From assembly GCA_044757065.1 (NCBI GenBank), contig JBIVUG010000002.1: a DNA stretch of 24,000 bases. One strand, given 5' to 3'. Below, piece by piece: positions 6,001 to 24,000 of the stretch (within the stretch, counting starts at the first letter, position 1; each line of letters opens with the position of its first letter). The translations under genes and the position numbers were made by a program. Source of the DNA: Actinosynnema sp. NPDC091369. GTDB lineage: Bacteria > Actinomycetota > Actinomycetes > Mycobacteriales > Pseudonocardiaceae. The notes under the pieces were generated by a model. It had not been told where the DNA came from. It searched no databases and saw only the letters and a program-made list of their open reading frames with translations.

Positions 6001-8855
6001 ACCTCGCGCGGCGTGAACTCCAGGCCCGCCGCCCGCGCCCGCGACACCAGCTGCATCGTGACGATGCTGTCGCCGCCCAGCTCGAAGAAGTTGTCGTGGA
6101 TGCCCGGCGTCAACCCCAGCACGGCCTCGACCAGGTCCACCAACGCCTGCTCGACCGGGTTCGTGGCCGGGGCGTCGCCGCCGAGCGCGGTCCAGTCGGG
6201 TTCCGGCAGCGCCGCGCGGTCCAGCTTGCCGTTCGGGGTCAACGGCAGCGGCCCGGCCACCGGCACCACCACGGACGGCACCATGTACTCCGGCAGCGCC
6301 GCGGCGACGTGCTCCCGCGCGTCCACCGGCGCGGCCGAGCCGACCACGTACGCGACGAGCCGCTTCACCCGCCGGTGGTCCTCCCGCACCAGCACGGCGG
6401 CCTGCGCGATCCCGGGGTGCGCCATGAGCACGCTCTCGACCTCGCCCGGCTCGATCCGGAACCCCCGGATCTTCACCTGGCCGTCGGAGCGGCCCAGGAA
6501 GTCCAGGTTGCCGTCCGCGCGCCACCGCGCCCGGTCGCCGGTCCGGTACATCCGCGCACCGGGCGCGCCGAACGGGTCGGCCACGAACCGGGACGCGGTC
6601 AGCGCCGCCTGACCCCGGTAGCCGCGCGCGAGCCCGCGCCCGCCGACGTACAGCTCCCCCTCGACGCCCACCGGCACCGGCCGCAGCGCCGAGTCCAGCA
6701 CGTAGCAGCGGGTGTTCGGGTCCGGCACGCCGATCGGCACCGGCCCCGTCCAGTCCGGCTGGGCCGGCCACAGCGTCGAGTTCACCGTCGCCTCGGTCAG
6801 GCCGTAGGCCGCCACGACCCGCAGCCGCCGGGCCCACCGGGCGATCAGCTCGGTCGGAACGGTCTCCGTGCCCACGATCAGCACCGCACCCGCGGGCAGC
6901 TCGCACTCCGGCGGCAGCGCGGCGACCAGCGACGGCGGCAGGATCATGTGCGTGGCCCCGTGCGCGGCGATGTAGGAGGTCAGCTCCTCGCCCGCGACGC
7001 GGCGGTGCGACGGCACGACGACCGCCCGCCCGCCGACGCCCAACGACATGCACAGGTCCCACACGGCCACGTCGAACCCGACGGACGCGAACTGCACCAC
7101 CCGGCTGTCCGGCGTGATCCCGATCCGGTCCAGTGCCGTCGCGATCAGGCTGCCGATGCCCTCGTGCGTGACCACGACGCCCTTGGGCCGGCCGGTCGAG
7201 CCGGACGTGTAGATCACGTACGCGGCCTGGTCCAGCGCGATGGGAAGGCCCAGGTCCGAGCCGTCGGCGGGCAGGTCGAACCGGGTCTGCGGCGTGATGA
7301 CGAGCTTGGCGCCCGCGTCGGCCACCATGTAGTCGACGCGGTCGCGGGGGTGGTCGAGGTCCAGCGGCAGGTAGGCCGCGCCCGCCTTCATCACCGCGAG
7401 CAGCGTCACGACCAGGTCGGCCGAGCGGGGCAGGGCCACGCCGACGACGTCCTCCGCTCCCACGCCCGCCGCGACGAGCGCGCGGGCCAGCCGGTTCGCG
7501 GCGGTGTTCAGCTCGGCGTAGGTCAGCGCCACGTCCTCGCACACCACCGCGACGGCGTCCGGGCGCAGCGCGGCCTGGCGCTCGACCGCACCGGGCCACG
7601 TCACCTCGTCCACCTCGCGCGGCGACGTGCCGAGGTCCAGCAGCCGGGCGCGTTCGGCGTCGTCGACCAGGTCGATCAACGCCACCGGCTGGTCGGGGTC
7701 GGCGTCGAGCACGCGCAGGAAGCGGCGCTGGTGGTCGGCCAGCTCGTCGGGCGTGCACACGGCGGCGTTCGCCTCGAACGTCACGACGAGCCTGCCGTCG
7801 GCGCGCTGGAGGAACGACGTGGTGAGGTCGTTGACCGGGCCGAGCGACAGCATGTGGAACGCGGGGTCGAGCTCGGTGAACCCCATCTCGCGGCCGAAGC
7901 CGAGGTAGTTGACCGTCGGCCCGACCAGCTCGGGGATGCCGTCGCGCAGGCCCAGCTCGCGGGCCAGGTCCTCGCCGCGGTAGGCGCTGTGCGGGATGAC
8001 CTCGCGGATCTCGCGGTCGACGTCGGCGATCAGGCCGGTGAGCGTGCTGTCCGGGCGGACGGTGACGCGCAGCGGCAGCACGGTGGACGCCATACCGGGC
8101 GTGACCCGGCTGACCGCGTCCCGCCGGCCCGTCACCGGCATGGCCAGCACCAGGTCGGTCGCGCCGGTCACGCGGTGGGTGTAGGCGGCGACGGCGGCGA
8201 TGACCTGCCGCGAGGACAACGGGTCCGGCAGCTCGACGGTCCGGCGGATGACCTCGCGCACCTGCCCGGCGGCCCGCGGCACGAGCCGCACCGGCTCGGG
8301 GTGGTCGGCCATCTTCGCGTGCCAGAACGCCCGGTCCGCTTCGCGGGCCGGCGACTCGCGGTAGGCCAGGTCGGCGTCGACCAGTGCCCGGACCGGCTTC
8401 GGCCGCGGCTCGGTGGCGCCCTCGTACAGCTCGCCGGCCCGGCGGGTGATCAGCACGCAGCCGTAGGCGTCGACCACGAGGTGGTGGTAGCGCTGGTACC
8501 ACAGCACGTGGTCGTCGGCGATGCGCAGCAGCGCGTGGTGGAACAGGGGGCCGTCGGCGATGTCGGTCAACCGGGCCATGTCGTCGTCCATCCACGCCCG
8601 CGCGTCGGCGAGCGAGTCGAACGACAGCAGCGTGACGTCGGTGGTCGGCGGCACCGGCACCTGGCCGTGCTCGGTGAAGCGGACGTGCAGCGCGCCGGTC
8701 TCGCCGACCACCTGCCGGACGGCCGCCTCCAGCCGGTCGTGGTCGACCGGGCCGCGCAGCTCCAGGTACCAGGCGACGTTGTAGACGGGGTTGTCGGGCT
8801 CCAGCTGCTGTGCCAACCAGACACCCGTCTGAGCACCGGTCAAGGGCAGCGCCAT
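1..8855 (-). CDS. Non-ribosomal peptide synthetase (siderophore type); 3' end runs off the left window edge. Domain order: C(DhbF/EntF-like)-A-T-C-A(Ser)-T-C-A(N5-hydroxy-Orn)-T(partial)
   Basis: Hand translation of the minus frame whose codon first bases are congruent to 2 mod 3. ATG at 8855-8853 is preceded by a GGAAGG SD. The N-terminus is [37 protein letters not shown]..., with HHLVVDAYG at 8486-8460. The three A3 cores [11 protein letters not shown] lie at 7179-7211, 4164-4196 and 1080-1112, all in the same frame. Carrier motifs are FFELGGDSI (Ser codon 6066-6068) and FFTLGGDSI (Ser codon 3039-3041). Internal C-domain motifs are HHILLDGWS (5541-5567) and [10 protein letters not shown] (2442-2471). 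NGKLD A10 motifs are near 6219-6233, 3190-3207 and 99-113. The window starts inside T3 ([11 protein letters not shown]). The gene is missing from the ORF track only because no stop codon lies in the window. Confidence 0.95.
5256..5345 (-). repeat. In-frame tandem 24-nt (8-aa) repeat inside NRPS condensation domain 2, with units VGGDARAA / VGGDARAA / LGGNSG / LGGDLRAA
   Basis: Plus-strand units are cgctgcgcgggcgtccccacccac (5256-5279), ggcagcgcgggcgtccccgcccac (5280-5303), a shortened 18-nt unit (5304-5321) and ggctgcgcggaggtccccgcccag (5322-5345). The reading frame was checked codon by codon and contains no stop. Confidence 0.85.
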
Positions 8856-8897
8856 GGTCACGACCTTCCCGTTCCTTCCCGACTTTCCCCGTACACG

Positions 8898-8939
8898 CAC
8901 CGCGGGTGGGGATGCGCGACGGCACCCCCACCCGCGGTG
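8898..8939 (-). other. Perfect 14-bp inverted repeat (stem-loop) in the 92-nt spacer between the binding-protein gene and the NRPS gene
   Basis: caccgcgggtgggg (8898-8911) and ccccacccgcggtg (8926-8939) are exact reverse complements separated by a 14-nt loop. No U-tract follows on the minus strand. Confidence 0.6.
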
Positions 8940-8947
8940 GACCGCCG

Positions 8948-9958
8948 CTAGTTCTTGATCGCTTCGAGCAGCGGCACGACCTGCTCGATGCCGTAGGGCA
9001 CGCTCAGCACCGTGTTGAACGACATGGCCGCGCCGATCGGCGGGTCCATGTAGGTGAGGAACAGGTCGCGCTTCTCGCTGACGACCTTCAGCCGCTGGTA
9101 GGCGGGCACGGACTTGACCCGCTCCCACGCGCTCTGGTCGAACATCAGCCACACCAGCCGGTCGGCGTCGAGCAGGTCGAACCGCTCCTCGCTGAACTCG
9201 GCGACGTTCATCTGGCCGGCCAGCTTGCCGATCTCGTCCACGAGGGTGAAGCCCAGCTCCTTCATGAAGATGGCCTTCGGGTCGGTCGGCGCGAACGCGG
9301 AGTACTGGCCGGGCTTGAAGCTGTCGGCCACCACCATCTTCTTGCCCGCCCACTCGGGGTGCGCGGCCTTGGCCTCGCCGAACTTCTTCGCCACGCCGTC
9401 GATCAGGGCCTGCGCTTCCTTCTCCTTGCCCAGCGCCTTGCCGATGTGCAGGGTCTGGTCCTGCCACGGCGCGGCGTAGTCGGGGAACGCCTTGGGCTGC
9501 GCGACCACGGGCGCGATCTTGGACAGCGTGTCGTACTGCTCCTGCTTCATGCCGGAGTAGACCGCGAGGATCAGGTCGGGCTTGAGCGCGGCGACCTTCT
9601 CCAGGTTGTACTCGTCGCGCTCGCCGACGATCTCCGGCTGGGTGCTGCCCCAGAGTTCCTTGGTCCACGGCCAGTTGCCGAAGGGCCGCTCCTTGAACCA
9701 GTCCACGACGCCGACCGGCTTGACGCCCAGAGCCAGCACGGGCTCCTGGTCGGACAGGCCGAGCGTGACGACCTTCTTCGGCTCCGCCTTGATCTCGGTG
9801 GTGCCGTACTTGTGCTCGACCGAGACCGGGAACGCGCCGGTGGAGGCGGTGTCGGTCGTGCTCGTCCCGCCGGAGCCGGCGTCGCCGCCGCCCCCGCAGG
9901 CGGCCAGCGCCAGCGCTGCGGCCGAGACGACCGCGACCAGCTTGAACCTCGTGGACAT
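8948..9958 (-). CDS. Iron-siderophore ABC transporter substrate-binding lipoprotein (FhuD/DesE/CchF-like)
   Basis: 336-aa ORF. The N-terminal signal has a lipobox ([12 protein letters not shown]). The body is typical of a periplasmic-binding-protein type 2 domain ([22 protein letters not shown]..., [11 protein letters not shown]...). GC3 is high and it sits between siderophore biosynthesis genes. Confidence 0.9.
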
Positions 9959-10004
9959 CAGGGTTTCCCTTTCAGCGGGCGCGACGGCGCGCCGTGATAC
10001 CAGG

Positions 10005-10023
10005 TTAGGTTTGCGTAACCTAA
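10005..10023. promoter_or_regulatory. IdeR/DmdR-type iron box upstream of the binding-protein/NRPS transcription unit
   Basis: TTAGGTTTGCGTAACCTAA matches the 19-bp consensus TTAGGTTAGGCTAACCTAA at 16/19. The 7-bp arms TTAGGTT/AACCTAA are perfect. It lies 47 nt upstream of the ATG at 9958, in a locally AT-richer spacer. Confidence 0.8.
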
Positions 10024-10039
10024 CAAACGGAGAGGCGGT

Positions 10040-11392
10040 TCAGCTCACCCGTGAGACGCTGATCGCGTATTCGGGCTGCGAGGGCACCGCCACGGGGACC
10101 GTCCGGGGCACCGTCGGGGTGCGGCGGTCGAGCACGGACCGGAGGATCTCCCCCACCCGCACGGAGGTGTTGGACAGCAACGACGACGAGATGCCGTGCG
10201 TGTGCTCGGTGCCGCCCTGGAGGTACAGGCCGGCGAGCAGGTCGTCGTCGGTGTCCAGGCGGTAGTCGCGGCCGACGCTGAGCCTGCCCTGCGCGTCCCG
10301 GGCGCAGCGCCCGGCCAGCTCGCCCAGCAGCGCGGTCGGGTCGGCCTCGCGGTAGCCGGTGGCGTAGACGATCGCGTCGGCGTCGAGCACCTCGCGCGCG
10401 CCGGTGGCCAACGACTCCACGGTGACCGCCACGCCGTCCGCGCGGTCGTCCAGCTCGGCCACGCGGGAGAGGTTGAGCAGCCGCAACCGCTGCCGCCCCA
10501 CCACCTTCTCCCGGTACACCCGCCGGTACAGCTCGGCGATCAGGTCCTGGTCGACCACCGCGTAGTTGGTGTTGCCGTGGTAGTCCATGAGCTTGCGCTT
10601 GACCGGCTCGGGCGCGGCGAAGTAGTCGTCCACGGCCGCCGGGTCGAAGATCCGGTTCGCGAACGGGCTGTCGTCGGCGGGGCTGTAGCCGTAGCGCGCG
10701 AACACCGCGCACACCTCGGCCGACGGGAACCGCTCGTGCAGGAACGCGGTGACCTCCGCGCCGCTCTGCCCGGCGCCGACCACGACCAGGCGGCGCGGGT
10801 CGGTCAGGGACTCGACGCGGTGCAGGAAGTCCCGGTTGTGCCACACGCGCTCGGAGGCGCGCACGCCCTCGGGCAGCGCCGGGCGCAGCCCGGTGGCCAG
10901 CACCAGGTTCCGGGCGCGGCGCACCTCCACCTCGCCCGCCGCCGTGGTCGACACGACGTCGAAGTGCGTGACCACGCCGTCCTTCACCACGGGCCGCACG
11001 TCCACCACGTCGTGGCCGTAGGACACCAGGTCGTCCACGCGCCCGGCGGCCCACTCGAAGTAGTCGTGGAACTCGACCCGCAGCGGGAACAGGTTCTTGT
11101 GGTTGATGAAGTCGACCAACCGGCCCTTGCCGTGCAGGTAGCTCAGGAACGTGAAGGTGCTGTTCGGGTTGCGCAGGGTCACCAGGTCCTTGAGGAACGA
11201 CACCTGCATGGTGGCGTCCTCGATCAGCATCCCGCGGTGCCAGCCGAACCGGGGCTGCCGTTCCAGGAAGTGGGCGGTCACCACGTCTTCGGCACGCGCG
11301 GTGGCGTTGTACTCGGTGACGGCGATCGCGAGGGCCAGGTTGGACGGCCCGAAGCCGACGCCGAGGACGTCGAAGACAGGTGGCTGTGGCAT
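10040..11392 (-). CDS. L-ornithine N5-monooxygenase (PvdA/SidA/CchB family flavin-dependent N-hydroxylase)
   Basis: 450-aa ORF. It has the FAD dinucleotide fold FDVLGVGFGPSNLALA, the NADPH motif VVVGAGQSGAEV and a family-typical C-terminal block (DAIVYATGY...LYLQGGTEHTHGISSSLLS). The ornithine assignment is supported by the hydroxyornithine code of NRPS A3. Confidence 0.92.
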   Translation of the reverse strand: MPQPPVFDVLGVGFGPSNLALAIAVTEYNATARAEDVVTAHFLERQPRFGWHRGMLIEDATMQVSFLKDLVTLRNPNSTFTFLSYLHGKGRLVDFINHKNLFPLRVEFHDYFEWAAGRVDDLVSYGHDVVDVRPVVKDGVVTHFDVVSTTAAGEVEVRRARNLVLATGLRPALPEGVRASERVWHNRDFLHRVESLTDPRRLVVVGAGQSGAEVTAFLHERFPSAEVCAVFARYGYSPADDSPFANRIFDPAAVDDYFAAPEPVKRKLMDYHGNTNYAVVDQDLIAELYRRVYREKVVGRQRLRLLNLSRVAELDDRADGVAVTVESLATGAREVLDADAIVYATGYREADPTALLGELAGRCARDAQGRLSVGRDYRLDTDDDLLAGLYLQGGTEHTHGISSSLLSNTSVRVGEILRSVLDRRTPTVPRTVPVAVPSQPEYAISVSRVS

Positions 11393-11428
11393 GGCTGTCC
11401 CATCGGTGCGACTACAGGGTGATCGAAC

Positions 11429-11447
11429 TTTGGTTACCCTAACCTAA
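11429..11447. promoter_or_regulatory. IdeR/DmdR-type iron box in the divergent promoter region, proximal to the monooxygenase gene
   Basis: TTTGGTTACCCTAACCTAA matches the consensus at 16/19. It lies 37 nt upstream of the ATG at 11392. Confidence 0.75.
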
Positions 11448-11481
11448 GTTGATCCTCCGCGGGAGTGATCCATGCCTCTCT

Positions 11482-11500
11482 TCTGATTAGGCTAGCCTCA
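11482..11500. promoter_or_regulatory. Second, weaker iron-box-like site in the divergent promoter region, proximal to the ABC genes
   Basis: TCTGATTAGGCTAGCCTCA matches the consensus at 14/19, with the core TTAGGCTAGCCT conserved. It lies 31 nt upstream of the likely GTG start at 11531. Confidence 0.5.
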
Positions 11501-11530
11501 CCTGACACAAAGTGGAAGGCGGACACCGGG

Positions 11531-13189
11531 GTGAAGACCGTCCTGAAGGACGCCGTCGTCGGGCAGTGGAGGTCGGTGACCACCGCTTCGGCGCTCGGCG
11601 CGGCGCACCAGGCGGGCGAGGCGGCCGTGCCGCTGCTCGTCGGCGTGGTGATCGACGAGGCGGTGCGCACCGGAGCCGGCGGGCGGCTGGTGCTCTGGAT
11701 CGGCGTGCTGGCCGCGGTGTTCGTGACGCTGTCGTTGAGCTTCCGCTTCTCCTTGCGCAGCGGTGAGAAGGCATCGCACCAGGCCGCGCACGAGGTGCGG
11801 TCCCGGCTCACCGCGCGAGTGCTGTCGACCGACGGCGGCGCGGCGCACGGCAGGCTGTCCGGGGAGCTGGCGAGCATCGCCACCAGCGACGCCCAGCGGG
11901 TCGGCCAGGTGAACCTGGCGCTGCCGATCGCGTTCTCCGCCGTGGTCGGCCTGCTGGTGGGCGCGGTGGCGCTGCTGCGCGTGTCGTGGGTGCTCGGACT
12001 GCTGGTCCTGGTCGCCGCGCCGGTGCTGCTCGGCCTGGCGCACGTGCTCGGCAAACCACTCGAACGGCGCAGCGACGCCGAGCAGGACCGGGCGGCGCTG
12101 GCGTCCGGGGTGGCGGCCGACCTGGTCGCCGGGCTGCGGGCGCTGAAGGGCATCGGCGCGGAGGTGACGGCGGCGCGCCGGTACCGCGTGACCAGCCGGT
12201 CGTCCAGGGCCGCCGCGATCCGGGCCGCCCGGTCGCGGGCCTGGCTGGACGGCTCGATGCTGGCCATGACCGGGGTGTTCCTGGCGGTGGTGGCGCTGGT
12301 CGGCGGGCACCTGGCCGCATCGGGCGCGATCACGGTCGGCGAGCTGGTGGCCGCGGTGGGGTTGGCGCAGTTCCTGCTGTGGCCGCTGTCGATCTTCTCC
12401 TGGGTCAACGGGCTGCTCGCGCAGGGCCGGGCGTCGGCCGCGCGGGTGGCCGAGGTGCTGGCCGCTCCCCCGGCCGTGCCGCCGGGTTCGGCGGCGTTGC
12501 CCGAGGTGGCCGGGCGGGTGCAGCTGGACGGCGTGGTGTCCGGGTCGTTGCGGGGCGTGTCGTTGACGGCGGCGCCCGGCGAGCTGCTCGGCGTGGTGGC
12601 GCGCGATCCGGCGGACGCGGTGTCGTTGCTGGCCGTGCTGGCGCGGGAGGTGGACCCGTCGGGCGGCGCGGTGACGCTGGACGGCGTGCCGCTGTCCACT
12701 GTGGAGGGTACGGCGCTGCGGTCGGCGGTGGTGGTGGCGGCGCACGACGCGGACCTGTTCGAGGGGTCGGTGCGGGAGAACGTCGCGGCCGGCGGCCCCC
12801 GGGTGGACGAGGCGATGGACGCGGCGCGGGTGGACGACGTGGCGCGGGCGCTGCCGGACGGGCTGGACACGGTGGTCTCCGCGCGCGGCCGGTCGCTGTC
12901 GGGCGGGCAGCGGCAACGGGTCGCGCTGGCCCGGGCGCTGGCCGCCGCTCCCCCGGTGCTCGTGGTGCACGACCCGACGACCGCGGTGGACGCGGTGACG
13001 GAGGTGGCGCTGGCGGCCGGGATCAAGCGGGTTCGGGCCGGGCTGACCACCGTCGTGGTCGCCACGAGCCCCGCCCTGCTGGCCGCGGCGGACCGGGTGG
13101 TGTTCCTGGCCGGTGGCGCGGTGGTCGCGGAGGGGACGCACGCGGAGCTGGTCGCCGATGACGACTACCGACTGGCGGTGTTGAGCTGA
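11531..13189 (+). CDS. ABC transporter, fused permease/ATPase (type I exporter fold), with a degenerate nucleotide-binding domain
   Basis: The track ORF is 11465-13189. I prefer the in-frame GTG at 11531 because it has a GGAAGG SD 11 nt upstream and the longer start would overlap an iron box. There are six hydrophobic segments followed by an NBD. The signature LSGGQRQRVALARAL is intact. Walker A is lost (GVVARDPADAVSLL), Walker B/catalytic Glu is altered (VLVVHDPTTAVD) and the H-loop His is absent (VVVATSPALL). The stop overlaps the next start (TGATG). Confidence 0.88.
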   Translation: MKTVLKDAVVGQWRSVTTASALGAAHQAGEAAVPLLVGVVIDEAVRTGAGGRLVLWIGVLAAVFVTLSLSFRFSLRSGEKASHQAAHEVRSRLTARVLSTDGGAAHGRLSGELASIATSDAQRVGQVNLALPIAFSAVVGLLVGAVALLRVSWVLGLLVLVAAPVLLGLAHVLGKPLERRSDAEQDRAALASGVAADLVAGLRALKGIGAEVTAARRYRVTSRSSRAAAIRAARSRAWLDGSMLAMTGVFLAVVALVGGHLAASGAITVGELVAAVGLAQFLLWPLSIFSWVNGLLAQGRASAARVAEVLAAPPAVPPGSAALPEVAGRVQLDGVVSGSLRGVSLTAAPGELLGVVARDPADAVSLLAVLAREVDPSGGAVTLDGVPLSTVEGTALRSAVVVAAHDADLFEGSVRENVAAGGPRVDEAMDAARVDDVARALPDGLDTVVSARGRSLSGGQRQRVALARALAAAPPVLVVHDPTTAVDAVTEVALAAGIKRVRAGLTTVVVATSPALLAAADRVVFLAGGAVVAEGTHAELVADDDYRLAVLS

Positions 13190-14913
13190 TGCGCGAGTTG
13201 TTGGCGACCGCGTCCGGCACGCGGACGTGGGCGGCGGTCGGGGAGCTCGTGCGACCGCGGCGGGCGTTGGCCTGGGGCGCGTCGCTCGTGCTGCTGGCCG
13301 GCACGGCGGTCGGGTTGCTCACCGCGCCCGTGCTCGGCCGGATCGTGGACCTGGTGGGCGCGGGGTCGTCCGCCATCACGTGGCTCGTGGTCGTGTTGGT
13401 GCTGGTCGCCGTCGCGCAGGGCGTGTCGACCGCGTTCGGCACGGCGCTGGTGGCGCGGCTCGGCGAGGGGATGCTCGCCGACCTGCGCGAGAAGTTCGTG
13501 GAACGGGCGCTGCACCTGCCCCTGGAACGGGTCGAGGAAGCGGGCGCGGGCGACCTCACCTCCCGCGTCACGCGGGACGTGCAGGTGATCGCGGACGCGG
13601 TGCGCAACGCGCTGCCGGTGATGGCGCGCTCGGCGTTGACCATCGGGTTGACCGTGGTCGGGATCGCGGTGCTGGACTGGCGGTTCCTGATCCCGGTGCT
13701 GCTGGCGCTGCCGATCCACGTGCACACCGTGCGCTGGTACGGCGGCCGTGCCGTGGAGCTGTACGCGGCACAGCGCGTGGCCGTGGGCGTGCAGCAGCAA
13801 CAACTGCTGGACTCGATCGGCGGCGCGGCGACCGTGCGGGCGTTCGGGCTGGCCGAGTCGCACGTCGACCGCGTCCGGTCCCGCTCGCGGGAGGCGGTGG
13901 ACCTGGCGCTGCGCGGCATCCGGCTGCTCACCCGGTTCTACGGACGCCTGAACGCGGCCGAGTTCATCGGGCTGGCCGGCGTGCTGGTGACCGGGTTCTG
14001 GCTGGTCGGCGCGGGCACCGCGTCGGTGGGCACGGCGACCGCCGCCGCCCTGTACTTCCACAGCCTGTTCAACCCGGTCAACGCCGCCCTCGCGCTGGCC
14101 GACGACGCCCAGGCCGCCACCGCCTCGCTGTCCCGGCTGGTCGGGGTGGCCGACGAGCCGATGCCCGTGCTCGAAGGGCGGGTGCGGCCCGACGACACGA
14201 CGATCAAGCTCGCCGGCGTCTCCTACTCCTACGTGGACGGCCACCCGGTGCTGCGGGACGTGGACCTCGAACTGGCCGCCGGTGAGCGGGTGGCGCTGGT
14301 CGGCGCGTCCGGCGCGGGCAAGACGACGTTGGCGAAGCTGATCGCGGGCGTGCACGAGCCGACCAGCGGCTGCATCAGCCTCGGCGGGGTGGAGCTGGGC
14401 GCGGCGGTCCGGTCGGTCGCGCTGATCACCCAGGAGGTGCACGTCTTCGCGGGTCCGCTGGCCGACGACCTGCGGCTGGCCCGCCCGGACGCCACCGACG
14501 CGGAGCTCACGGCGGCGCTGGACCGGGTGGGCGCGCTGGGGTGGGCCGAGGCGTTGCCGTCCGGCCTGGAGACCGTGGTCGGCGAGGGCGGGCACCGGTT
14601 GACCGTGGCGCAGGCCCAGCAGTTGGCGCTGGCCCGGCTGGTGCTGGCCGACCCGCCGGTGGCGATCCTGGACGAGGCGACCGCGGACGCGGGCAGCGCC
14701 GGCGCGCGGGAGCTGGAGGCGGCGGCGGCGCGGGCGCTGGACGGCCGGACCGGGTTGCTGGTGGCGCACCGGCTCACCCAGGCCGTGACGGCCGACCGCG
14801 TGGTCGTGCTGGAAGCGGGCCGGGTAGTGGAGAACGGGACGCACGAGGAACTGCTGGCCGCGGGCGGCCGGTACGCCGAGCTGTGGGCGGCCTGGTCGGG
14901 CACCCGCGCCTGA
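13189..14913 (+). CDS. ABC transporter, fused permease/ATPase, with a canonical nucleotide-binding domain but a degenerate signature motif
   Basis: 574-aa ORF. Walker A is GASGAGKTT, the Q-loop is ITQEVHVF, Walker B is VAILDEATADAG and the H-loop is LLVAHRLTQ. The signature is LTVAQAQQ instead of LSGGQ. It is translationally coupled to the upstream gene. Confidence 0.9.
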   Translation: MRELLATASGTRTWAAVGELVRPRRALAWGASLVLLAGTAVGLLTAPVLGRIVDLVGAGSSAITWLVVVLVLVAVAQGVSTAFGTALVARLGEGMLADLREKFVERALHLPLERVEEAGAGDLTSRVTRDVQVIADAVRNALPVMARSALTIGLTVVGIAVLDWRFLIPVLLALPIHVHTVRWYGGRAVELYAAQRVAVGVQQQQLLDSIGGAATVRAFGLAESHVDRVRSRSREAVDLALRGIRLLTRFYGRLNAAEFIGLAGVLVTGFWLVGAGTASVGTATAAALYFHSLFNPVNAALALADDAQAATASLSRLVGVADEPMPVLEGRVRPDDTTIKLAGVSYSYVDGHPVLRDVDLELAAGERVALVGASGAGKTTLAKLIAGVHEPTSGCISLGGVELGAAVRSVALITQEVHVFAGPLADDLRLARPDATDAELTAALDRVGALGWAEALPSGLETVVGEGGHRLTVAQAQQLALARLVLADPPVAILDEATADAGSAGARELEAAAARALDGRTGLLVAHRLTQAVTADRVVVLEAGRVVENGTHEELLAAGGRYAELWAAWSGTRA

Positions 14914-14962
14914 TGTCCCCCGAACGCCGTGTATCCAGCGGCCGGACGCGGGCCTCTACCTG

Positions 14963-15508
14963 GTGTTGGTCCCCCACCGCCACCACTGGAGCCCCGCCGT
15001 GACCAGTTCCGTCAAAGCCGACGCGACGAACACCGTGACCATCACGTACCACCTGACGCTGCCCGACGGCCACGTCATCGCGGGCACGAAGACGTGCACC
15101 AACCTCGACCGGCTCGACTGCCCCCAGTACTACTACCGCGAGGAGGACCGCAAGGACGAGCGGGGCAAGCCGGTCTACCTGCACATGTGGGACCCCGACA
15201 CCCAGCTGTTCGACTGGCTGGCGAACCAGGTGTTCGCGCACTGCCGCAACGACACGCAGACCTACACCGCCGCCGCCCGCCGGGCGGTCGGCCGGGTCGA
15301 CGTGGTCGACGACCAGGGCCCCTGCCACTCCTGCCGCGGCGTGCTGTCCCAGTTCCACCGCGAGTACCCGAACGTCGTCGTCAAGGTCGACTACGCCACC
15401 GGTGACGTGAACCGGCCGACGAAGCCCGCGGGCACGGGCAAGGGCGTCTACGGCTACGCGGAGGGCGCCGTGCACACCGGTCGCGGCTGGTGGACCAAGA
15501 CGCTGTGA
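14963..15508 (+). CDS. Small cytoplasmic protein of unknown function with a deaminase-fold-like helix plus PCxxC signature
   Basis: GC3 is very high throughout, so it is genuinely coding. An alternative and probably better start is GTG 14999, with a GGAG SD at 14988-14991. The sequence contains ...LHMWDPDTQLFDWLANQVFAHC...GRVDVVDDQGPCHSCRGVLSQFHREYPNVVVKVDY... No signal peptide or TM segment is present. Confidence 0.75.
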   Translation: MLVPHRHHWSPAVTSSVKADATNTVTITYHLTLPDGHVIAGTKTCTNLDRLDCPQYYYREEDRKDERGKPVYLHMWDPDTQLFDWLANQVFAHCRNDTQTYTAAARRAVGRVDVVDDQGPCHSCRGVLSQFHREYPNVVVKVDYATGDVNRPTKPAGTGKGVYGYAEGAVHTGRGWWTKTL

Positions 15509-15834
15509 ACGCGACTCCAACGAGAAGCCGCCATGACAACGATTCCGCCACCGTCACGCGCCCGCAACCGCAGGGAACCGCCGTGCACGGCCATGATCGT
15601 GTCCACAATGGTCAGTCCGAACCCGGCACCCGCGCCGGCCGCGGTCCGGTCGCGCCCACCCCGCCGGAACGGCTCGGTGAGCTCGGCCACCTCGTCGGCG
15701 GACAGCGGCGGACCGGTGTTCTCGACGCGCACGGCCCCGTCCGCGGCCGGCAGCACCCTCAGCACGGAGAACCTCTTGGGCGACAACCGGATCGGCACGC
15801 CGTCCCGGACCGAGCCCTGCCACCGCTCCAGCAC
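15454..15834 (-). pseudogene. Histidine-kinase fragment: only the distal HATPase_c part with G1/G2 boxes, truncated at both ends
   Basis: The translation contains AVRVENTGPPLSADEVAELTEPFRRGGRDRTAAGAGAGFGLTIVDTIMAVHGGSLRLRARDGGGIVV. No H-box, N-box or sensor region is present. An in-frame TGA lies 6 codons upstream of the first possible start. The last ~30 codons lose the GC3 bias and overlap the 3' end of the convergent gene 14963-15508. Confidence 0.7.
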
Positions 15835-15852
15835 GACGTCGACCGAACAGCC

Positions 15853-15887
15853 TCACCGACGCCCTCCCTGTCCGGAGGGGTCGGTGA
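15853..15887 (-). terminator. GC-rich hairpin downstream of the 49-aa ORF
   Basis: tcaccgacgccctcc / ggaggggtcggtga form a 14-bp stem with one bulged G and a 6-nt loop (ctgtcc). The U-tract is weak. Confidence 0.5.
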
Positions 15888-15923
15888 ACACCGGCCGACA
15901 TCAACAGGGCATGAACACCGGGC

Positions 15924-16073
15924 TCAGAACAGGACGATCAGCAGGATGATCCCGAGAACGACCGCGATCAGGGTCGGGATGGTCGCGGGCGACCTGCGGT
16001 AGTGGCTCTGCACCGAGGTGGTGCGGAACCAGCTGTACGGCACTCGGCGACGGTGTCGCTGAACCCAGGGCAT
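15924..16073 (-). CDS. Small tail-anchored membrane protein (49 aa), not in the supplied ORF track
   Basis: Hand translation gives MPWVQRHRRRVPYSWFRTTSVQSHYRRSPATIPTLIAVVLGIILLIVLF*. A GGGAG SD lies 6 nt upstream of the ATG (16073-16071). About 90 percent of third positions are G/C. The protein has a basic N-terminus and a single C-terminal TM helix. The overlapping listed ORF 15901-16110 is in another frame and looks like a shadow. Confidence 0.6.
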   Translation of the reverse strand: MPWVQRHRRRVPYSWFRTTSVQSHYRRSPATIPTLIAVVLGIILLIVLF

Positions 16074-16165
16074 TTCGGCTCCCAACGTCGTTTCGTCCCC
16101 CGACGATCACCAGGGAGATACCCGCGACGGTCCGCCGCTAAGCCCGGGAACGCCCCGGATGCCGA

Positions 16166-16198
16166 AAACGCCGGTGGCCGCGAGGGCCACCGGCGTTT
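16166..16198 (-). terminator. Rho-independent terminator after the MFS gene
   Basis: aaacgccggtggcc (16166-16179) and ggccaccggcgttt (16185-16198) form a perfect 14-bp stem with a 5-nt loop. On the minus-strand transcript the GC core is followed by UUUU. It lies 16 nt downstream of the MFS stop (16214). Confidence 0.8.
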
Positions 16199-16213
16199 CC
16201 GGGCGGAACGGGC

Positions 16214-17377
16214 TCAGGTCTGTTCGGCCACCGGCACGGGCCGGCGCAGGGCCAGCGCGTCCGGCACCAGGGTCAGCAGGCCCAGCACGCCGAGGGCCGC
16301 GCCGATCCACAGCGGGCCGCGCAGCCCCATGCCCCAGTCGATGCCGAGACCGCCGATCCACGACCCGACCATCACGCCGAGCATGATGCAGGCCGTGTGC
16401 ACGGAGTTGACCAGCATGTTGTTCTGCCCCACCCGCGCGCCGCGGGTCACCAGGGCCGGGTTCATCGACACGCCGGTCAGGCCGATCACCACCAGCGCGA
16501 CGACCGCGACCACGGCCGACTGGGCGAACAGCGCGAACAGCACCATCGCCGCCACGGCCACGACCAGGCCGACCACGAGCACCTGGATGGTGAACCGGTC
16601 GGCCAGCCGGCCCACCACGTTGTTGCCCACGATCGTCGCCACGCCGTAGACCACGAGCAGCACCGGCACGATCCCCGCCGAGAACCCGCTCAGCTCGGTC
16701 AGGATCGGCACGAAGTAGGTGAAGCCCGCGAACGTGGCGCCGATCAGCAGCAGGCTCGTCGCGTAGATGGCCCACAGCTTGCCGCTGCGGAAGATCGCGA
16801 GCTGGCCCGCCATCGGCATCGCCGGCGGGGCGGGCATCGCGGGCAGCGCCTTGACCAGCAGCAGGCCGACCGCCAGCGCGACCACCGCCACCGACAGGAA
16901 GCTGACCCGCCAGCCGAACCGCTCGCCGACGAACGTCGCCGCCGGCAGGCCGAGCACGGTGCCGAACATCAGCCCGCCCAGCACCAGCGACGACGCCCGC
17001 GCGAACTTCTCGCCGCCGACCAGCTCGGCGCACGCCGTCAGCGCCACGCCGAAGAACGCCGCCGCGGCGACCGCGGTGACCAGGCGGGCCACCACCATTG
17101 TCCCGTAGCCCTGCGCGACCGCGCCGAGCACCTGGCCCACCACGAAGACCGCGACGAGGCCGAGCAGCGCGGTCTTGCGCGACATCTTCAACAGCGCCAC
17201 GGTCAGCAGCGGTCCGCCGACCGCCATCGCGCCCGCGTAGACGGTCACGAGGTAGCCGACGGCCGCGAACGACACGTCGAACTCGGCGGACAGCGCGGGC
17301 ATCAGCCCCGACACCATGTACTCACTGGTGGTCAGGGCGAAGATGCCCAGGCCGAGGACGTAGACGGCTAGCGGCAT
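16214..17377 (-). CDS. MFS transporter (12-TMS, DHA1-like efflux pump)
   Basis: This is the real part of track ORF 16214-18097. It starts MPLAVYVLGLGIFALTTSEYMVSGLMPALSAEF... from the ATG at 17377, with a GGGAG SD. It is 387 aa and uniformly hydrophobic, with an MFS-type repeat organisation. The 240-aa N-terminal extension in the track overlaps clpP and is Arg/His/Gly junk. Confidence 0.9.
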   Translation of the reverse strand: MPLAVYVLGLGIFALTTSEYMVSGLMPALSAEFDVSFAAVGYLVTVYAGAMAVGGPLLTVALLKMSRKTALLGLVAVFVVGQVLGAVAQGYGTMVVARLVTAVAAAAFFGVALTACAELVGGEKFARASSLVLGGLMFGTVLGLPAATFVGERFGWRVSFLSVAVVALAVGLLLVKALPAMPAPPAMPMAGQLAIFRSGKLWAIYATSLLLIGATFAGFTYFVPILTELSGFSAGIVPVLLVVYGVATIVGNNVVGRLADRFTIQVLVVGLVVAVAAMVLFALFAQSAVVAVVALVVIGLTGVSMNPALVTRGARVGQNNMLVNSVHTACIMLGVMVGSWIGGLGIDWGMGLRGPLWIGAALGVLGLLTLVPDALALRRPVPVAEQT

Positions 17378-17439
17378 CGGTTCGGACTCCCGAAGAGGAT
17401 TGGACGGTCGAGCGACGCCGGCGACGGGCCGGCGGTGGG

Positions 17440-18045
17440 TCAGATGTTGGTGATGATCCGGTCGATGAAGCCGTACTCCAGGGCCTCCTCGGCGGTGAAC
17501 CACTTGTCGCGATCGGCGTCGCGCTCGATGGTCTCCACCGTCTGACCGGTCTGCTCCGCGGTGATCCGGGCCATCCGCTTCTTCATCTGCGTGAAGATCG
17601 TCGCCTGGATCTCGATGTCGGTCGCCGTGCCGCCGATGCCCGCGGACGGCTGGTGCATCAGCACCCGGGTGCTGGGCAGCACGAAGCGCTTGCCGCGCGT
17701 GCCCGACGAGAGCAGGAACTGCCCCATCGAGGCCACGAAGCCCAGGCCGATCGTGGAGACGTCGGGCTTGATGTGGTTCATCGTGTCGTAGATGGCCATG
17801 CCCGCCGTGACCGAACCGCCCGGCGAGTTGATGTACATCTGGATGTCGGCTTCTTCGTCCTCGGCCGCGAGCACCAGCAACTGCATGGTCAGCCGGTTCG
17901 CGACCTCGTCGTTGACCTCCGAGCCGAGCAGCACGATCCGAGACCGCAGCAGCTGCTCGTACAACGGGTCGTGCGTGATCGGAGCTTGCGTGTTCGAGCG
18001 GGCCATGATCGCTGCCGCGAGGTCCACCGTTCCCCCATGTTCCAT
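17440..18045 (-). CDS. clpP: ATP-dependent Clp protease proteolytic subunit, ClpP1-type, stand-alone copy
   Basis: The sequence ...RSNTQAPITHDPLYEQLLRSRIVLLGSEVNDEVANRL...YINSPGGSVTAGMAIYDTM... is a close match, from memory, to actinobacterial ClpP1. The catalytic Ser (GFVASMG), His (LMHQPS) and Asp (ERDADRDKWF) are present. An alternative start is the ATG at 18006 (MARSNTQ...). No clpP2, tig or clpX is adjacent. Confidence 0.95.
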   Translation of the reverse strand: MEHGGTVDLAAAIMARSNTQAPITHDPLYEQLLRSRIVLLGSEVNDEVANRLTMQLLVLAAEDEEADIQMYINSPGGSVTAGMAIYDTMNHIKPDVSTIGLGFVASMGQFLLSSGTRGKRFVLPSTRVLMHQPSAGIGGTATDIEIQATIFTQMKKRMARITAEQTGQTVETIERDADRDKWFTAEEALEYGFIDRIITNI

Positions 18046-18115
18046 ACCGTGAATGTGCCGATCGACTACGGAACGTAGCCTGATCGTCGCAACCCAATCA
18101 ACTCGGCGCTCCGCA

Positions 18116-18132
18116 GTTCGCTAGTGGCGAAC
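18116..18132. promoter_or_regulatory. ClgR-type operator palindrome upstream of clpP
   Basis: GTTCGC-TAGTG-GCGAAC is a perfect inverted repeat fitting the actinobacterial ClgR motif (GTTCGC-N5-GCG / TTCGC-N5-GCGAA). It abuts the methyltransferase stop codon. It sits 14 nt upstream of a possible -35 TTGATT (18101-18096), followed by an 18-nt spacer and a -10 TACGTT (18077-18072), all on the minus strand. Confidence 0.7.
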
Positions 18133-21331
<3,199 letters not shown>

Positions 21332-21334
21332 GGC

Positions 21335-21757
21335 TCAGCCCTGCACGATCGCCGCGGCGGCGTCGGCCCCGCCGAGCGCTTCCATGTGCTTCACCGGGTT
21401 CCAGAAGTCCCGGTAGAGCGTGATGTGCTCGCCGTCGGTGTGCAGGACCGAGATGTAGTCCTGGTCCAGCTTGAGGCCCGACGCGGTGGCGGTGCCGTCG
21501 CCGTGGAACTCGCCGATGGCCAGGTTCTCGTCGGCGGTCGGGTAGAAGGTCACCTCGCCGAACTTCACGGTCAGGTGCTCGGGGAACTTCTGCATGTGCT
21601 GCCAGATGGCCTCGCGGCCCTCGAAGCGGTTGGGCCAGCCGGGCGGCGCGTAGGGGAACTCCAGCACGCCGTCGGGGTGGAACAGGTCGCACCAGCCGCG
21701 GGCGTCGCCGTTCTCCAGCAACTCCAGGCTGCGGGTCAGGATCTCCTGGGCGTTCAT
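21335..21757 (-). CDS. NTF2-like / SnoaL-like small protein (possible cyclase, isomerase or epoxide-hydrolase fold)
   Basis: This is the real part of track ORF 21335-22474: MNAQEILTRSLELLENGDARGWCDLFHPDGVLEFPYAP...ITLYRDFWNP, 140 aa. Its ATG (21757) overlaps the P450 stop as ATGA. Confidence 0.7.
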   Translation of the reverse strand: MNAQEILTRSLELLENGDARGWCDLFHPDGVLEFPYAPPGWPNRFEGREAIWQHMQKFPEHLTVKFGEVTFYPTADENLAIGEFHGDGTATASGLKLDQDYISVLHTDGEHITLYRDFWNPVKHMEALGGADAAAAIVQG

Positions 21758-22977
21758 GCGGACGTCCTTCCGGTGAGCACGGGCTGGGGGATGACGGGCA
21801 CGCTGATCAGGGCGCGCAGGAACGTGATCGGCAGCCAGACCAGCTCGCCGTGCGGCACGGCCAAGCGCAGGTCCGGGAAGCGGGTGAGCAGCTTGCCGAT
21901 CGCGACGCGGGCCTCCAGCCGGGCCAGCGGCGCGCCGACGCAGTAGTGCACGCCGTGGCCGTAGCCGAGGTGCCCGTCTGCCTTGCGGGTGAGGTCGAGC
22001 CGGTCCGGGTCGGCGAACCGCTCGGGGTCGTGGTTGGCGGTGAGGTTGGAGACCAGCACGTACTCCCCCGCCGGGATGGTCACGTCGCCGAGGTCGACGT
22101 CCTCGACGGTGAACCGGAGCATCGACGCGCGGACGGCGCTGTCGTAGCGGACCAGCTCCTCCAGCGCGTTCGGCAGCAGGTCCGGGTCCTCCCGCAGCGA
22201 CGCGGCCTGCTCGGGGTGCAGGAGGAGCGTGACGACCGCGTTGCCGATCATGTTCATGGTCGTCTCGAAGCCGGCCATCAACAACAGGTGGGACATGGCC
22301 ACGAGCTCGTCCGCGGAAAGCCCGTCCTCGTCCGCGGCCTGCACGAGCGCGCTGTAGACGTCGTCGGCCGGGTCGCGGCGCTTGGCCTCCAGCAGGCCGC
22401 GCAGGTAGTCGGCCTGCTCCTCGGCCAGCGCCTCGGCGGCCTCGGGCGACAGCAGCTCCGCCTGCCGCTCCCACGCACCGCGCACGTGGTCGCGTTCGGC
22501 GGTCGGCACGCCCAGCAGCTCGCAGATCACGCCGATGGTCAGCGGCACGGCGAAGTCGCCCATCAGGTCGACCTGCTCGCGCGCGGCCATCGCGTCCAGC
22601 AGCTCGTCGGTCAGCTGCTCGATGTGCGGGCGCAGCCGCTCGACCCGCCGGCTGGTGAACGCGCGGCCGACCAGGGCCCGCAGCCGGGTGTGGTCGGGCG
22701 GGTCGGCGTTGAGCATGTGCGCGGTCAGGGAGGCGCCGATGGCCTCCCGCCGCTCCCCCGTGCGCCGGGCGTACAGCTCGGCCGCCTGCTTCGCGTCACG
22801 CCGCACGCCGGGGTGCGAGAGCACCTTCTTGGCGTCGGCGTACCGGGTCACCACCCACACCGGGTGGTCGGGCGCGAGGTGGGCGGGCCGGGGCGCGCCG
22901 TCGACCTGGAGGCCGTCGTAGAGCGGGTGCAGCGGCGAGATCAGCTCCTCGCCGAGGCGGAGTTCAGGACCCGACAC
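21754..22977 (-). CDS. Cytochrome P450 monooxygenase
   Basis: 407 aa with the I-helix LLLMAGFETT, the ExxR motif ELVRYDSAVR and the heme loop GYGHGVHYCVGAPLARLE. A GTG start overlaps the SDR 3' end by 14 nt. Confidence 0.95.
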   Translation of the reverse strand: MSGPELRLGEELISPLHPLYDGLQVDGAPRPAHLAPDHPVWVVTRYADAKKVLSHPGVRRDAKQAAELYARRTGERREAIGASLTAHMLNADPPDHTRLRALVGRAFTSRRVERLRPHIEQLTDELLDAMAAREQVDLMGDFAVPLTIGVICELLGVPTAERDHVRGAWERQAELLSPEAAEALAEEQADYLRGLLEAKRRDPADDVYSALVQAADEDGLSADELVAMSHLLLMAGFETTMNMIGNAVVTLLLHPEQAASLREDPDLLPNALEELVRYDSAVRASMLRFTVEDVDLGDVTIPAGEYVLVSNLTANHDPERFADPDRLDLTRKADGHLGYGHGVHYCVGAPLARLEARVAIGKLLTRFPDLRLAVPHGELVWLPITFLRALISVPVIPQPVLTGRTSA

Positions 22978-23881
22978 GGTGCGCCTCCTGGTCGGCGGGC
23001 AGCGGGGTGACGATCTTGCGGAACATCGAGTCCACGGCGGTGTCGGGCAGCACCCGCGCCAGGAAGCTGCCGCGCCGCACGTCCGTGCCGATGCGGTAGC
23101 GGGTCTTGGGCTTGGCCGAGGTGAGCGCCGAGTCGATGGCGGCGGCCACCTCGGCGGGCCGGGTCTTGCTGTCCTTGGCGGCCTGCTCGTTGAACTGGAG
23201 GAACCGCAGGAACGTGGCCCGGTAGAGGTCGGCGACGCGGGCCGGCGCGGCGGACAGCGCGTCGTGGCCCTCCTGGGCGATCTTGCCCCAGATCGGGGTC
23301 CAGATCGCGCCGGGGCTGACCACGGACACCGACACGCCCATCGGGGCCAGCTCGCGGCGCAGCGCGTCGCTCATGCCCTCCTTGGCGAACTGGGCCGCCG
23401 AGTACGGCCCCAGGTACGGGATGGCGACCGTGCCCAGCCCCGAGGTCACGTTGACCAGCCGGCCGCGGGCGGTGCGCAGCTGCGGCAGGAACGCCTGCGT
23501 GACCGCGAGCTGGCCGACCACGTTGACCTCGAGCTGGCGGCGCAGCACGTCGGTGGGCACGACCTCCAGCGGCGCGGAGACGCAGATGCCCGCGTTGTTG
23601 ACCAGGCCCCACAGGCCGCGTCCGCCGACCTTGGCGGCCACCTCCTCGGCCGCGGCGGCGATGGACGCCTCGTCGGTCACGTCGAGCACCACGTGCTCGA
23701 CCCGCCCCGACGGGCAGTCGGCGGCGAGCCGGTCGCCGTCCTCGGTCTTGCGCACCGCGCCCAGGACCCGGAAGCCCCGCTCGGCCAGGTGCAGCGCGGT
23801 CTCCCGGCCCAGGCCGGTCGACGCGCCGGTGATCAGCACGGTCTTGCCGCTCGGCGGCAGTGCCTTGGCGGTGAACACCAT
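22964..23881 (-). CDS. Short-chain dehydrogenase/reductase with an atypical active-site motif (YxxxQ)
   Basis: 305 aa with the cofactor motif VLITGASTGLG, then NNAG, and the active-site region TSGLG...GPYSAAQFAKEG. A strong GAGGAG SD precedes the ATG at 23881. Confidence 0.88.
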   Translation of the reverse strand: MVFTAKALPPSGKTVLITGASTGLGRETALHLAERGFRVLGAVRKTEDGDRLAADCPSGRVEHVVLDVTDEASIAAAAEEVAAKVGGRGLWGLVNNAGICVSAPLEVVPTDVLRRQLEVNVVGQLAVTQAFLPQLRTARGRLVNVTSGLGTVAIPYLGPYSAAQFAKEGMSDALRRELAPMGVSVSVVSPGAIWTPIWGKIAQEGHDALSAAPARVADLYRATFLRFLQFNEQAAKDSKTRPAEVAAAIDSALTSAKPKTRYRIGTDVRRGSFLARVLPDTAVDSMFRKIVTPLPADQEAHRVGS

Positions 23882-23888
23882 GTACTCC

Positions 23889-24000
23889 TCACGCGCCCGC
23901 GGGCGAACTCTGGGTGATCTCCGACAGCAGGGTGTCCAGCGAGTCGTCCGCCATCCGCCGCGCGCGCTCGTCCGGCACCGCGTCGGCGATGTAGGTGAAG
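23889..24000 (-). CDS. 3' end of an upstream gene of unknown function; 5' part lies outside the window
   Basis: The minus-frame translation ...FTYIADAVPDERARRMADDSLDTLLSEITQSSPAGA* has high GC3. The TGA at 23891-23889 lies inside the SDR ribosome-binding region. Confidence 0.55.
   Translation of the reverse strand, partial: FTYIADAVPDERARRMADDSLDTLLSEITQSSPAGA

Follow-up and report, generated by a model that had tools for sequence, protein, structure and literature searches.

We analyzed a window of 24,000 nucleotides, which is the whole stretch taken from contig JBIVUG010000002.1 of Actinosynnema sp. NPDC091369 (assembly GCA_044757065.1), and concentrated on the gene block at its right end (positions 16214 to 24000), in which a gene for a ClpP-type protease subunit stands within a biosynthetic operon. 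All genes of the block lie on the minus strand; nine are complete, and one is 5' truncated. Their families were assigned by Pfam, and they are named here after their counterparts in the azetidomonamide (aze) and metagenomic azetidopyrroline (MTA) clusters. In the order of transcription, these genes encode the C terminus (~35 codons) of a standalone condensation-family dehydratase of the AzeD type (23889 to 24000), the gene of which runs past the window edge; a short-chain dehydrogenase/reductase (SDR) that is the counterpart of AzeE, the bicyclocarbamate-ring ketoreductase (22964 to 23881; Pfam adh_short, 2.1e-43); a cytochrome P450, counterpart of the ring hydroxylase AzeF (21754 to 22977; Pfam p450, heme Cys motif HYCVG at residue 344); a SnoaL/NTF2-like protein, counterpart of AzeG (21335 to 21757; Pfam SnoaL_2, 5.4e-14); a FabH-type ketoacyl-acyl carrier protein synthase III (KASIII) for a short acyl starter (20336 to 21331; Pfam ACP_syn_III and ACP_syn_III_C); a discrete acyl carrier protein (ACP) for the starter unit (20085 to 20324; Pfam PP-binding, 1.2e-17, DSL motif at residue 36); an acyl-CoA/ACP dehydrogenase (ACAD), counterpart of MtaJ (18945 to 20081; three ACAD Pfam domains); a putative azetidine-2-carboxylate (AZE) synthase with a class-I methyltransferase fold, homologous to AzeJ (18133 to 18903; assigned from PDB 8RYD and sequence motifs); a ClpP1-type protease subunit that is linked to the cluster and corresponds to MtaL (17440 to 18045; Pfam CLP_protease, 1.7e-74); and a Cmx/CmrA-like efflux pump of the major facilitator superfamily (MFS), encoded by the last gene of the operon (16214 to 17377; Pfam MFS_1, 3.4e-37).

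The junctions between these genes, read from the truncated gene down to the MFS gene, measure 7, -14, -4 (ATGA), 3, 11, 3, 41, 87, and 62 nt, and the 41-nt junction between the ACAD and AZE synthase genes shortens to 35 nt when measured from the alternative start that relatives use. A hairpin that probably serves as the operon terminator follows the MFS gene (16162 to 16202, minus strand). Its 18-bp stem folds with a calculated energy of -46.8 kcal/mol (z = -5.3), and 0 of 200 shuffled sequences were as stable; its U-run is only four long. A consensus terminator and promoter scan of positions 15000 to 24000 listed no element, and this hairpin was missed because its U-run contains only four U. 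The homology to the Umezawaea genome described below stops at position 16183, within the hairpin. The first-pass annotation of this DNA, which was made from the letters and their translations, had described ten co-directional minus-strand genes with their families, the overlaps and gaps between them, and a convincing intrinsic terminator after the MFS gene; the coordinates and Pfam matches, the recomputed junctions, and the folding calculation, respectively, agree with this description.

Two genes were reannotated. The gene at 18133 to 18903 had been labeled a methyltransferase gene, but its product matched AzeJ of Pseudomonas aeruginosa (PDB 8RYD) with an E value of 1.8e-91 and 66% identity, and it contains all three motifs, namely, FY, PFNxxGN, and RxxYYxxC (present as RHAYYTRC), that are diagnostic of AZE synthases (PMC11794875). 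This gene is thus predicted to encode an AZE synthase rather than a methyltransferase. A separate PDB entry, 29st (chain 29st_A, "Methyltransferase family protein," 247 amino acids [aa]), is ~95% identical to the window protein, which means that a near-identical actinobacterial AZE synthase has already been crystallized. The segment at 23889 to 24000 had been recorded as an unknown fragment; it is indeed the end of a real gene, and it can now be assigned. It aligns, up to the last base of the window, inside the gene for a 440-aa Condensation/PapA_C protein of Actinosynnema sp. NPDC051121, and the full-length protein of that strain matched PDB 8S6L (E = 5.4e-190), the structure of the standalone dehydratase AzeD (bioRxiv 10.64898/2026.07.17.738954). 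Because the alignment with relatives reaches the last base of the window, we regard this segment as encoding the C terminus of an AzeD-type protein.

The relatives were reached through the closest homologues of the window ClpP, and nine named Saccharothrix, Actinosynnema, and Umezawaea genomes proved to be syntenic. Their DNA identity to the window is about 90 to 97%, with alignments that extend to its last base; they include Saccharothrix saharensis (L042; 97.1%, the closest genome found), Actinosynnema sp. NPDC051121 (L001; 93.6%), Umezawaea sp. Da 62-37 (L002; 89.7%), and Saccharothrix texasensis (L043). The records VFPP01000001.1 (S. saharensis), CP135965.1 (Umezawaea), and CP191993.1 (Actinosynnema) belong to cluster-bearing genomes. 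In all nine, the genes directly upstream of the SDR gene encode a Condensation/PapA_C protein of 436 to 440 aa, a 386-aa FAD monooxygenase, and a nonribosomal peptide synthetase (NRPS). The NRPSs of these nine genomes have 2343 to 2383 aa and share the bimodular organization C-A-T-C-A-T-TE. The monooxygenase, which matches FAD_binding_3 and is encoded between the NRPS and the Condensation/PapA_C genes, is 69 to 77% identical to the enzyme of the proteobacterial clusters, and its Baeyer-Villiger activity is a prediction only. It had been stated that the gene set seen here is not that of an NRPS plus a Baeyer-Villiger monooxygenase. This does not hold, since both genes adjoin the counterpart of position 24000 in 9/9 syntenic relatives; as judged from synteny, their seeming absence is an artifact of the window end. 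The Umezawaea counterpart is named clipibicyclene/azabicyclene by antiSMASH.

A scan of species-representative genomes with an AzeJ alignment, which returned 22 loci, followed by tblastn searches with all window proteins, extended this comparison across phyla. The complete order NRPS-FMO-C-SDR-P450-NTF2-KASIII-ACP-ACAD-AzeJ-ClpP-MFS (where FMO is the FAD monooxygenase and C the Condensation/PapA_C protein) was found in 5 Pseudonocardiaceae genomes, and clusters of Pseudomonas, Serratia, and an Enterobacteriaceae strain (LSJC7) showed the same order without the ACAD gene, at protein identities of 53 to 78% (44 to 53% for the ACP). The succession SDR-P450-NTF2 is that of AzeE-AzeF-AzeG, with 66 to 78% identity to the Pseudomonas and Serratia clusters: the SDR shares 66 to 68% identity with the SDR found in the corresponding place of these aze-type clusters, the P450 is 71 to 78% identical to the proteobacterial cluster P450, and the NTF2-like protein is 71 to 74% identical to its proteobacterial counterparts, of which AzeG is needed in vivo (bioRxiv 10.64898/2026.07.17.738954). 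The MFS protein is 70 to 77% identical to those of the proteobacterial aze-type clusters and scored 290 bits, under the cutoff, with the NCBIfam Cmx/CmrA model. The KASIII and ACP genes occupy the same position as in the proteobacterial aze-type clusters; the KASIII scored 374 bits with an NCBIfam FabH subfamily model (cutoff, 249) and carries its Cys, His, and Asn in the motifs AACTGF, PHQAN, and GNTVAAS, and the ACP is 100% identical to that of L001. The ACAD was found in every actinobacterial locus and, by tblastn, in none of the proteobacterial ones; its subthreshold NCBIfam matches include the carrier-protein-linked dehydrogenases RedW, PigA, and MbtN. In the SDR, the usual YxxxK motif reads YSAAQFAK (residues ~163 to 170), with Gln at the Lys position and Lys three residues on, and this variant recurs in each AzeE-type homologue of the alignment, also in the Pseudomonas and Serratia ones.

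Two published clusters provide the framework for these data. The aze cluster encodes the NRPS AzeB, the Baeyer-Villiger enzyme AzeC, the dehydratase AzeD, the ketoreductase AzeE, the hydroxylase AzeF (a P450), and the NTF2-like AzeG, along with precursor and transport genes, and its product is a seven-membered cyclocarbamate that modifies ClpP covalently (bioRxiv 10.64898/2026.07.17.738954). The MTA cluster, retrieved on a soil cosmid (GenBank PX841131) and responsible for the products metaze A and B (Kan et al., ACS Chem Biol 2026, PMC13386464), is aze-like but has an additional gene for an acyl-CoA dehydrogenase, mtaJ, whose role, an extra desaturation, marks the MTA subtype, and a clpP gene, mtaL, that has been relocated. 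Metaze B, a bicyclocarbamate with a 4-methylpenta-2,4-dienoyl group, inhibits Mycobacterium tuberculosis ClpP1P2:C1 at 1.35 uM and forms a covalent adduct of ~262 Da; the same authors note the similarity of the MTA cluster to an uncharacterized Saccharothrix cluster and report that the cosmid carries, at its other end, a fragment of the siderophore cluster for saccharochelin (PMC13386464). We conclude that positions 16162 to 24000 are very probably the downstream part, approximately the back two-thirds, of an NRPS cluster that is ClpP associated and belongs to the azetidomonamide/clipibicyclene family and the MTA subtype. This family was described between 2019 and 2026, and the cluster is a new member of it or, possibly, one already described. 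The proposal of a biosynthetic operon for a ClpP-directed metabolite is thus supported by gene content, order, and synteny, from which the family assignment is predicted, whereas the idea that the pathway is undescribed had to be abandoned, since its architecture matches the published MTA/aze/clipibicyclene family (PMC13386464; bioRxiv 10.64898/2026.07.17.738954). The two 22-nt primers used to recover the MTA clpP gene match the window exactly (17771 to 17792 and 17440 to 17461), and the MTA cosmid-end, A-domain, and promoter-insertion primers have no match in the window. Because the cosmid-end and promoter-insertion primers were not found, the window may stem from a strain other than the source of the MTA cluster.

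Not all loci returned by the AzeJ scan resemble the window. Streptomyces and Kitasatospora genomes contain AzeJ-type loci (L014 to L025) with AZE synthase homologues that are 43 to 50% identical and are placed in differently organized NRPS contexts, and no clpP gene was detected within 10 kb of them, indicating that AZE-using clusters are not always ClpP associated. In a variant cluster on a metagenome contig (L038, SRR13588842_46866; 13351 to 19628), the AZE synthase homologue, which is 54% identical and has intact motifs, has been shifted downstream of the MFS gene. Next to it come genes for an IF-2B family isomerase, a class II aldolase, ARD, a hydrolase, an aminotransferase, and a PNP_UDP_1 phosphorylase, a methionine-salvage-like set that would fit a recycling of methylthioadenosine, which is a by-product when AZE is made; in this variant, the end of the NRPS gene is separated from the monooxygenase gene by an IS110 transposase gene. 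A megablast match to the Streptomyces cattleya megaplasmid was considered as the clipibicyclene cluster and rejected, as the locus is unannotated and offers just an unrelated P450 at 37% identity. A tblastn search of plasmids with the AZE synthase produced no match.

Gene identity, gene order, synteny, and the coinheritance of clpP were observed directly, and the chemistry and ClpP inhibition outlined next are taken from the papers on homologous clusters. By analogy with these, the window copy would make a compound of the metaze-like bicyclocarbamate class. The AzeJ homologue would cyclize S-adenosylmethionine to AZE, a proline analogue, and the KASIII, the ACP, and the extra acyl-ACP dehydrogenase would supply a short unsaturated acyl starter, which is crotonyl in aze and 4-methylpenta-2,4-dienoyl in MTA. 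The bimodular NRPS predicted just past position 24000 would join the acyl-Ser to AZE and release a bicyclic lactam, which the off-window flavin-dependent Baeyer-Villiger monooxygenase would expand to a seven-membered cyclocarbamate. This warhead would be completed through ketoreduction by the SDR, dehydration by the AzeD-type C-domain protein, and hydroxylation by the P450, with the NTF2-like protein as helper, and would then acylate the ClpP serine. The MFS pump presumably exports the product, and the ClpP1-type subunit of the cluster would likely let the producer tolerate the inhibitor or tune its response to it.

In agreement with the first-pass annotation, the ClpP has an intact catalytic triad (Ser106/His131/Asp180) and is ClpP1-like, since its best solved relatives are mycobacterial ClpP1 proteins (E value of about 1e-70) and it shares 76% identity with gene 1, versus 49% with gene 2, of the Actinosynnema clpP pair; the usual neighbors tig, clpP2, and clpX are likewise absent from the window. 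An exact sequence look-up of this ClpP found it not on record. ClpPs that are 90 to 99% identical to the window copy occur in the nine named genomes, all inside the cluster, and those with 82% and 81% identity are found on two metagenome contigs, both in ACAD-type cluster variants. This clade, of at least 81% identity, was thus located inside the cluster in 11/11 distinct loci examined, and the proposed co-occurrence of clpP and the MFS gene with the KASIII-ACP-ACAD-P450 operon held at each of them. The clade is confined to cluster-bearing genomes, and the nearest noncluster ClpPs lie elsewhere: an orphan gene in an unrelated context (79% identity), the clpP-clpP pair of Actinosynnema mirum, Actinosynnema pretiosum, and relatives, which is not beside tig or clpX (76%), and an orphan gene of Saccharothrix sp. 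AJ9571 (74%). None of the 22 loci returned by the AzeJ scan belonged to A. mirum and its relatives. The ClpP1-like genes seen outside such clusters in Pseudonocardiaceae (L027, 5001 to 6303; L037, 6001 to 6594; and L040, 10001 to 10579) comprise the clpP-clpP pair and lone clpP genes that adjoin TetR/acetyltransferase or ABM/PhzF genes. In a neighbor-joining tree, the cluster-borne ClpPs formed one clade within the actinobacterial ClpP1 types. In Umezawaea, the block including clpP and the MFS gene is intact, and its downstream neighbors are different. Because the cluster is conserved there with both genes while what follows it differs, gene conservation argues that clpP and the MFS gene are integral parts of the cluster and excludes a chance adjacency.

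The cluster ClpP clade also differs in sequence from other ClpPs. Six residues, namely, Q153, K156, R160, E164, E174, and K181, are private to it in a comparison with twelve noncluster ClpP1-type proteins, and K181 immediately follows the catalytic Asp180. The window ClpP shares only 39 to 41% identity with the cluster ClpPs of Serratia and LSJC7, which are of a different lineage and occupy a different gene position, whereas the ten biosynthetic and export genes are colinear across phyla and 44 to 78% identical. The biosynthetic and MFS genes seem to have passed horizontally from phylum to phylum, and since the linked ClpP, unlike these genes, diverges between them, it may be suggested that the actinobacterial MTA-type clusters gained their ClpP independently of the proteobacterial ones. 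We offer this independent capture of a host-type ClpP as a tentative proposal that is less likely than not, and did not find it stated in the literature consulted on the aze and MTA clusters. If true, the cluster moves horizontally and takes up a host-type ClpP time and again, and the six clade-specific substitutions would be candidates for inhibitor tolerance of the cluster ClpP.

The role of the extra ClpP leaves room for more than one explanation. A self-resistance (or decoy) copy is plausible, and the cluster has no ClpP2 partner gene. The cluster ClpP could also be an alternative protease subunit that is tuned by the metabolite and thereby regulates the proteolysis of the producer rather than conferring resistance, which we consider unlikely on balance. 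A regulatory interplay of this type has been proposed for ClpP1/ClpP2 of P. aeruginosa and the aze products (PMC13056064), azetidomonamide A modulates biofilm formation and pigment production of its producer (bioRxiv 10.64898/2026.07.17.738954), metaze A and B caused no growth inhibition of the organisms tested (PMC13386464), and the intact catalytic triad of the cluster ClpP is in line with it. Conversely, accessory ClpPs of Streptomyces are reported to serve as resistance factors (Thomy 2019 and Culp 2022, via PMC13056064), and the biosynthetic genes are 53 to 78% identical between actinobacteria and proteobacteria despite very different ClpP types, a divergence that suits selection for any protective copy at least as well as it does a specific regulatory partnership. 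The assignment to an MTA-type cluster with a self-resistance ClpP must also be read against several further points: the core NRPS and monooxygenase genes lie outside the window, and their placement is deduced from synteny with the relatives; the MTA cluster was compared with the window by its description and primers; the MTA clpP primers match several relatives too and are hence not discriminating; mtaL is called a "potential" resistance gene by Kan et al. (PMC13386464); for P. aeruginosa, both inhibition and ClpP2-mediated resistance are described as undemonstrated, and the regulatory interplay was proposed instead (PMC13056064); and a search with the Actinosynnema paired ClpP, together with the listing of cluster members, returned no housekeeping clpP1 or clpP2 gene that could be assigned to the cluster-bearing genomes.

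Two other explanations concern the composition of the operon and fare far worse. An NRPS-independent route, in which the KASIII, ACP, ACAD, P450, SDR, and methyltransferase would make an undescribed, possibly beta-lactone-like, ClpP-interacting metabolite, is very improbable: although the window itself shows no NRPS of the operon and no Baeyer-Villiger enzyme, the NRPS, monooxygenase, and AzeD genes directly follow in all syntenic relatives, the "methyltransferase" is the predicted AZE synthase, and the SDR, P450, and NTF2-like proteins are counterparts of AzeE, AzeF, and AzeG. The likeness to the beta-lactone routes OleA/OleD and LstAB/LstD, which had been raised on account of the KASIII and the ketoreductase, was rejected, as the KASIII is of the FabH type, the SDR is the counterpart of AzeE, a ring ketoreductase, and neither the window nor, the NRPS aside, the set of genes called within 10 kb in the relatives includes an OleC-type (AMP-binding) gene. 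The remark that no OleC-type enzyme is visible in the window was itself correct, as confirmed by the gene annotation, and the locus, which shows neither an OleA-type head-to-head thiolase nor an OleC-type synthetase, does not qualify as a beta-lactone pathway of the OleABCD, LstABCD, or Nlt kind. The least probable explanation of all is that clpP and the MFS gene are unrelated neighbors that merely lie downstream of the operon. The gaps of 87 nt before clpP and 62 nt before the MFS gene do exceed the other junctions, and clpP has the lowest G+C content of the operon (0.65, versus 0.69 to 0.76 for the other genes), but the pair stays with the operon in all 11 loci, that of Umezawaea included, the sole strong hairpin is 3' of the MFS gene, and the MFS gene belongs to the block conserved across phyla (70 to 77% identity).

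The remainder of the window contains a separate hydroxamate siderophore NRPS cluster (1 to 14913). It is composed of a multimodule siderophore NRPS gene that runs off the left end (3 to 8900, minus strand; 3 A, 4 C, and 2 T domains), genes for a periplasmic binding protein (8948 to 9958, minus strand) and an ornithine/lysine N-monooxygenase (10040 to 11392, minus strand), and two ABC exporter genes (11465 to 14913, plus strand). Its adjacency was seen in the relatives from Saccharothrix and Actinosynnema as well as in the MTA cosmid, not in Umezawaea. A segment of ~0.9 kb (14945 to 15850) has no counterpart in any syntenic relative and may be a small insertion or remnant; it carries a 181-aa open reading frame (ORF; 14963 to 15508, plus strand) with a weak match to the deaminase toxin family PF14424 (E = 1e-7) and a truncated histidine kinase ATPase fragment (15454 to 15834, minus strand), and the G+C content over 14945 to 15924 is 0.70. 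The 2890-aa ORF at 279 to 8951 (plus strand) has no Pfam match, lies opposite the minus-strand NRPS gene, and was discarded as a high-GC shadow frame, as were several other ORFs of >300 aa without a Pfam match, among them long minus-strand ones.

These data show that a reading of the sequence alone can rightly flag a target-duplication cluster and that a window edge can conceal core enzymes, making a known family appear new. They also indicate that cultured Saccharothrix, Actinosynnema, and Umezawaea strains are likely producers of metaze-type ClpP inhibitors, which are known so far from the metagenomic cosmid only. The ClpP1-type protein of the cluster, its housekeeping or orphan paralogues, and the proteobacterial ClpP2-type proteins offer a natural comparison for whether, and by what means, cluster ClpPs withstand acylation of the active site.

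Among the known systems, the MTA cluster shares with the window and its relatives the order of Baeyer-Villiger monooxygenase, C-domain protein, SDR, P450, NTF2-like protein, KASIII, and ACP genes after the NRPS gene, and with the window the co-directional downstream order of the extra ACAD, AZE synthase, clpP, and MFS genes; a siderophore NRPS cluster adjoins in both the MTA cosmid and the window. It differs in that its regulator gene mtaA and its NRPS gene correspond to positions outside the window. The P. aeruginosa aze cluster (azetidomonamides/azabicyclene), with AzeB to AzeJ and a linked clpP2, shares the order NRPS-BVMO-AzeD-AzeE-AzeF-AzeG-KASIII-ACP-AzeJ-MFS (BVMO, Baeyer-Villiger monooxygenase), whereas the window cluster has the extra ACAD, and its clpP is of the actinobacterial ClpP1 type and located between the AzeJ homologue and MFS genes. 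Clipibicyclene and a family of ClpP-associated clusters were reportedly described by Culp et al. in Nature Microbiology in 2022. The clipibicyclene cluster (cac) of S. cattleya is reported to be likewise an NRPS and Baeyer-Villiger monooxygenase bicyclocarbamate cluster with a duplicated clpP that yields a covalent ClpP inhibitor, and it includes the AZE synthase Cac6. The ClpP-ADEP system of Streptomyces hawaiiensis also has a lone accessory gene of the ClpP1 type, which borders a cluster for a ClpP-acting product (PMC13056064); however, ADEP is an activator that binds at the ATPase-docking pocket and not an agent that acylates the active site, and its biosynthetic genes are unrelated.

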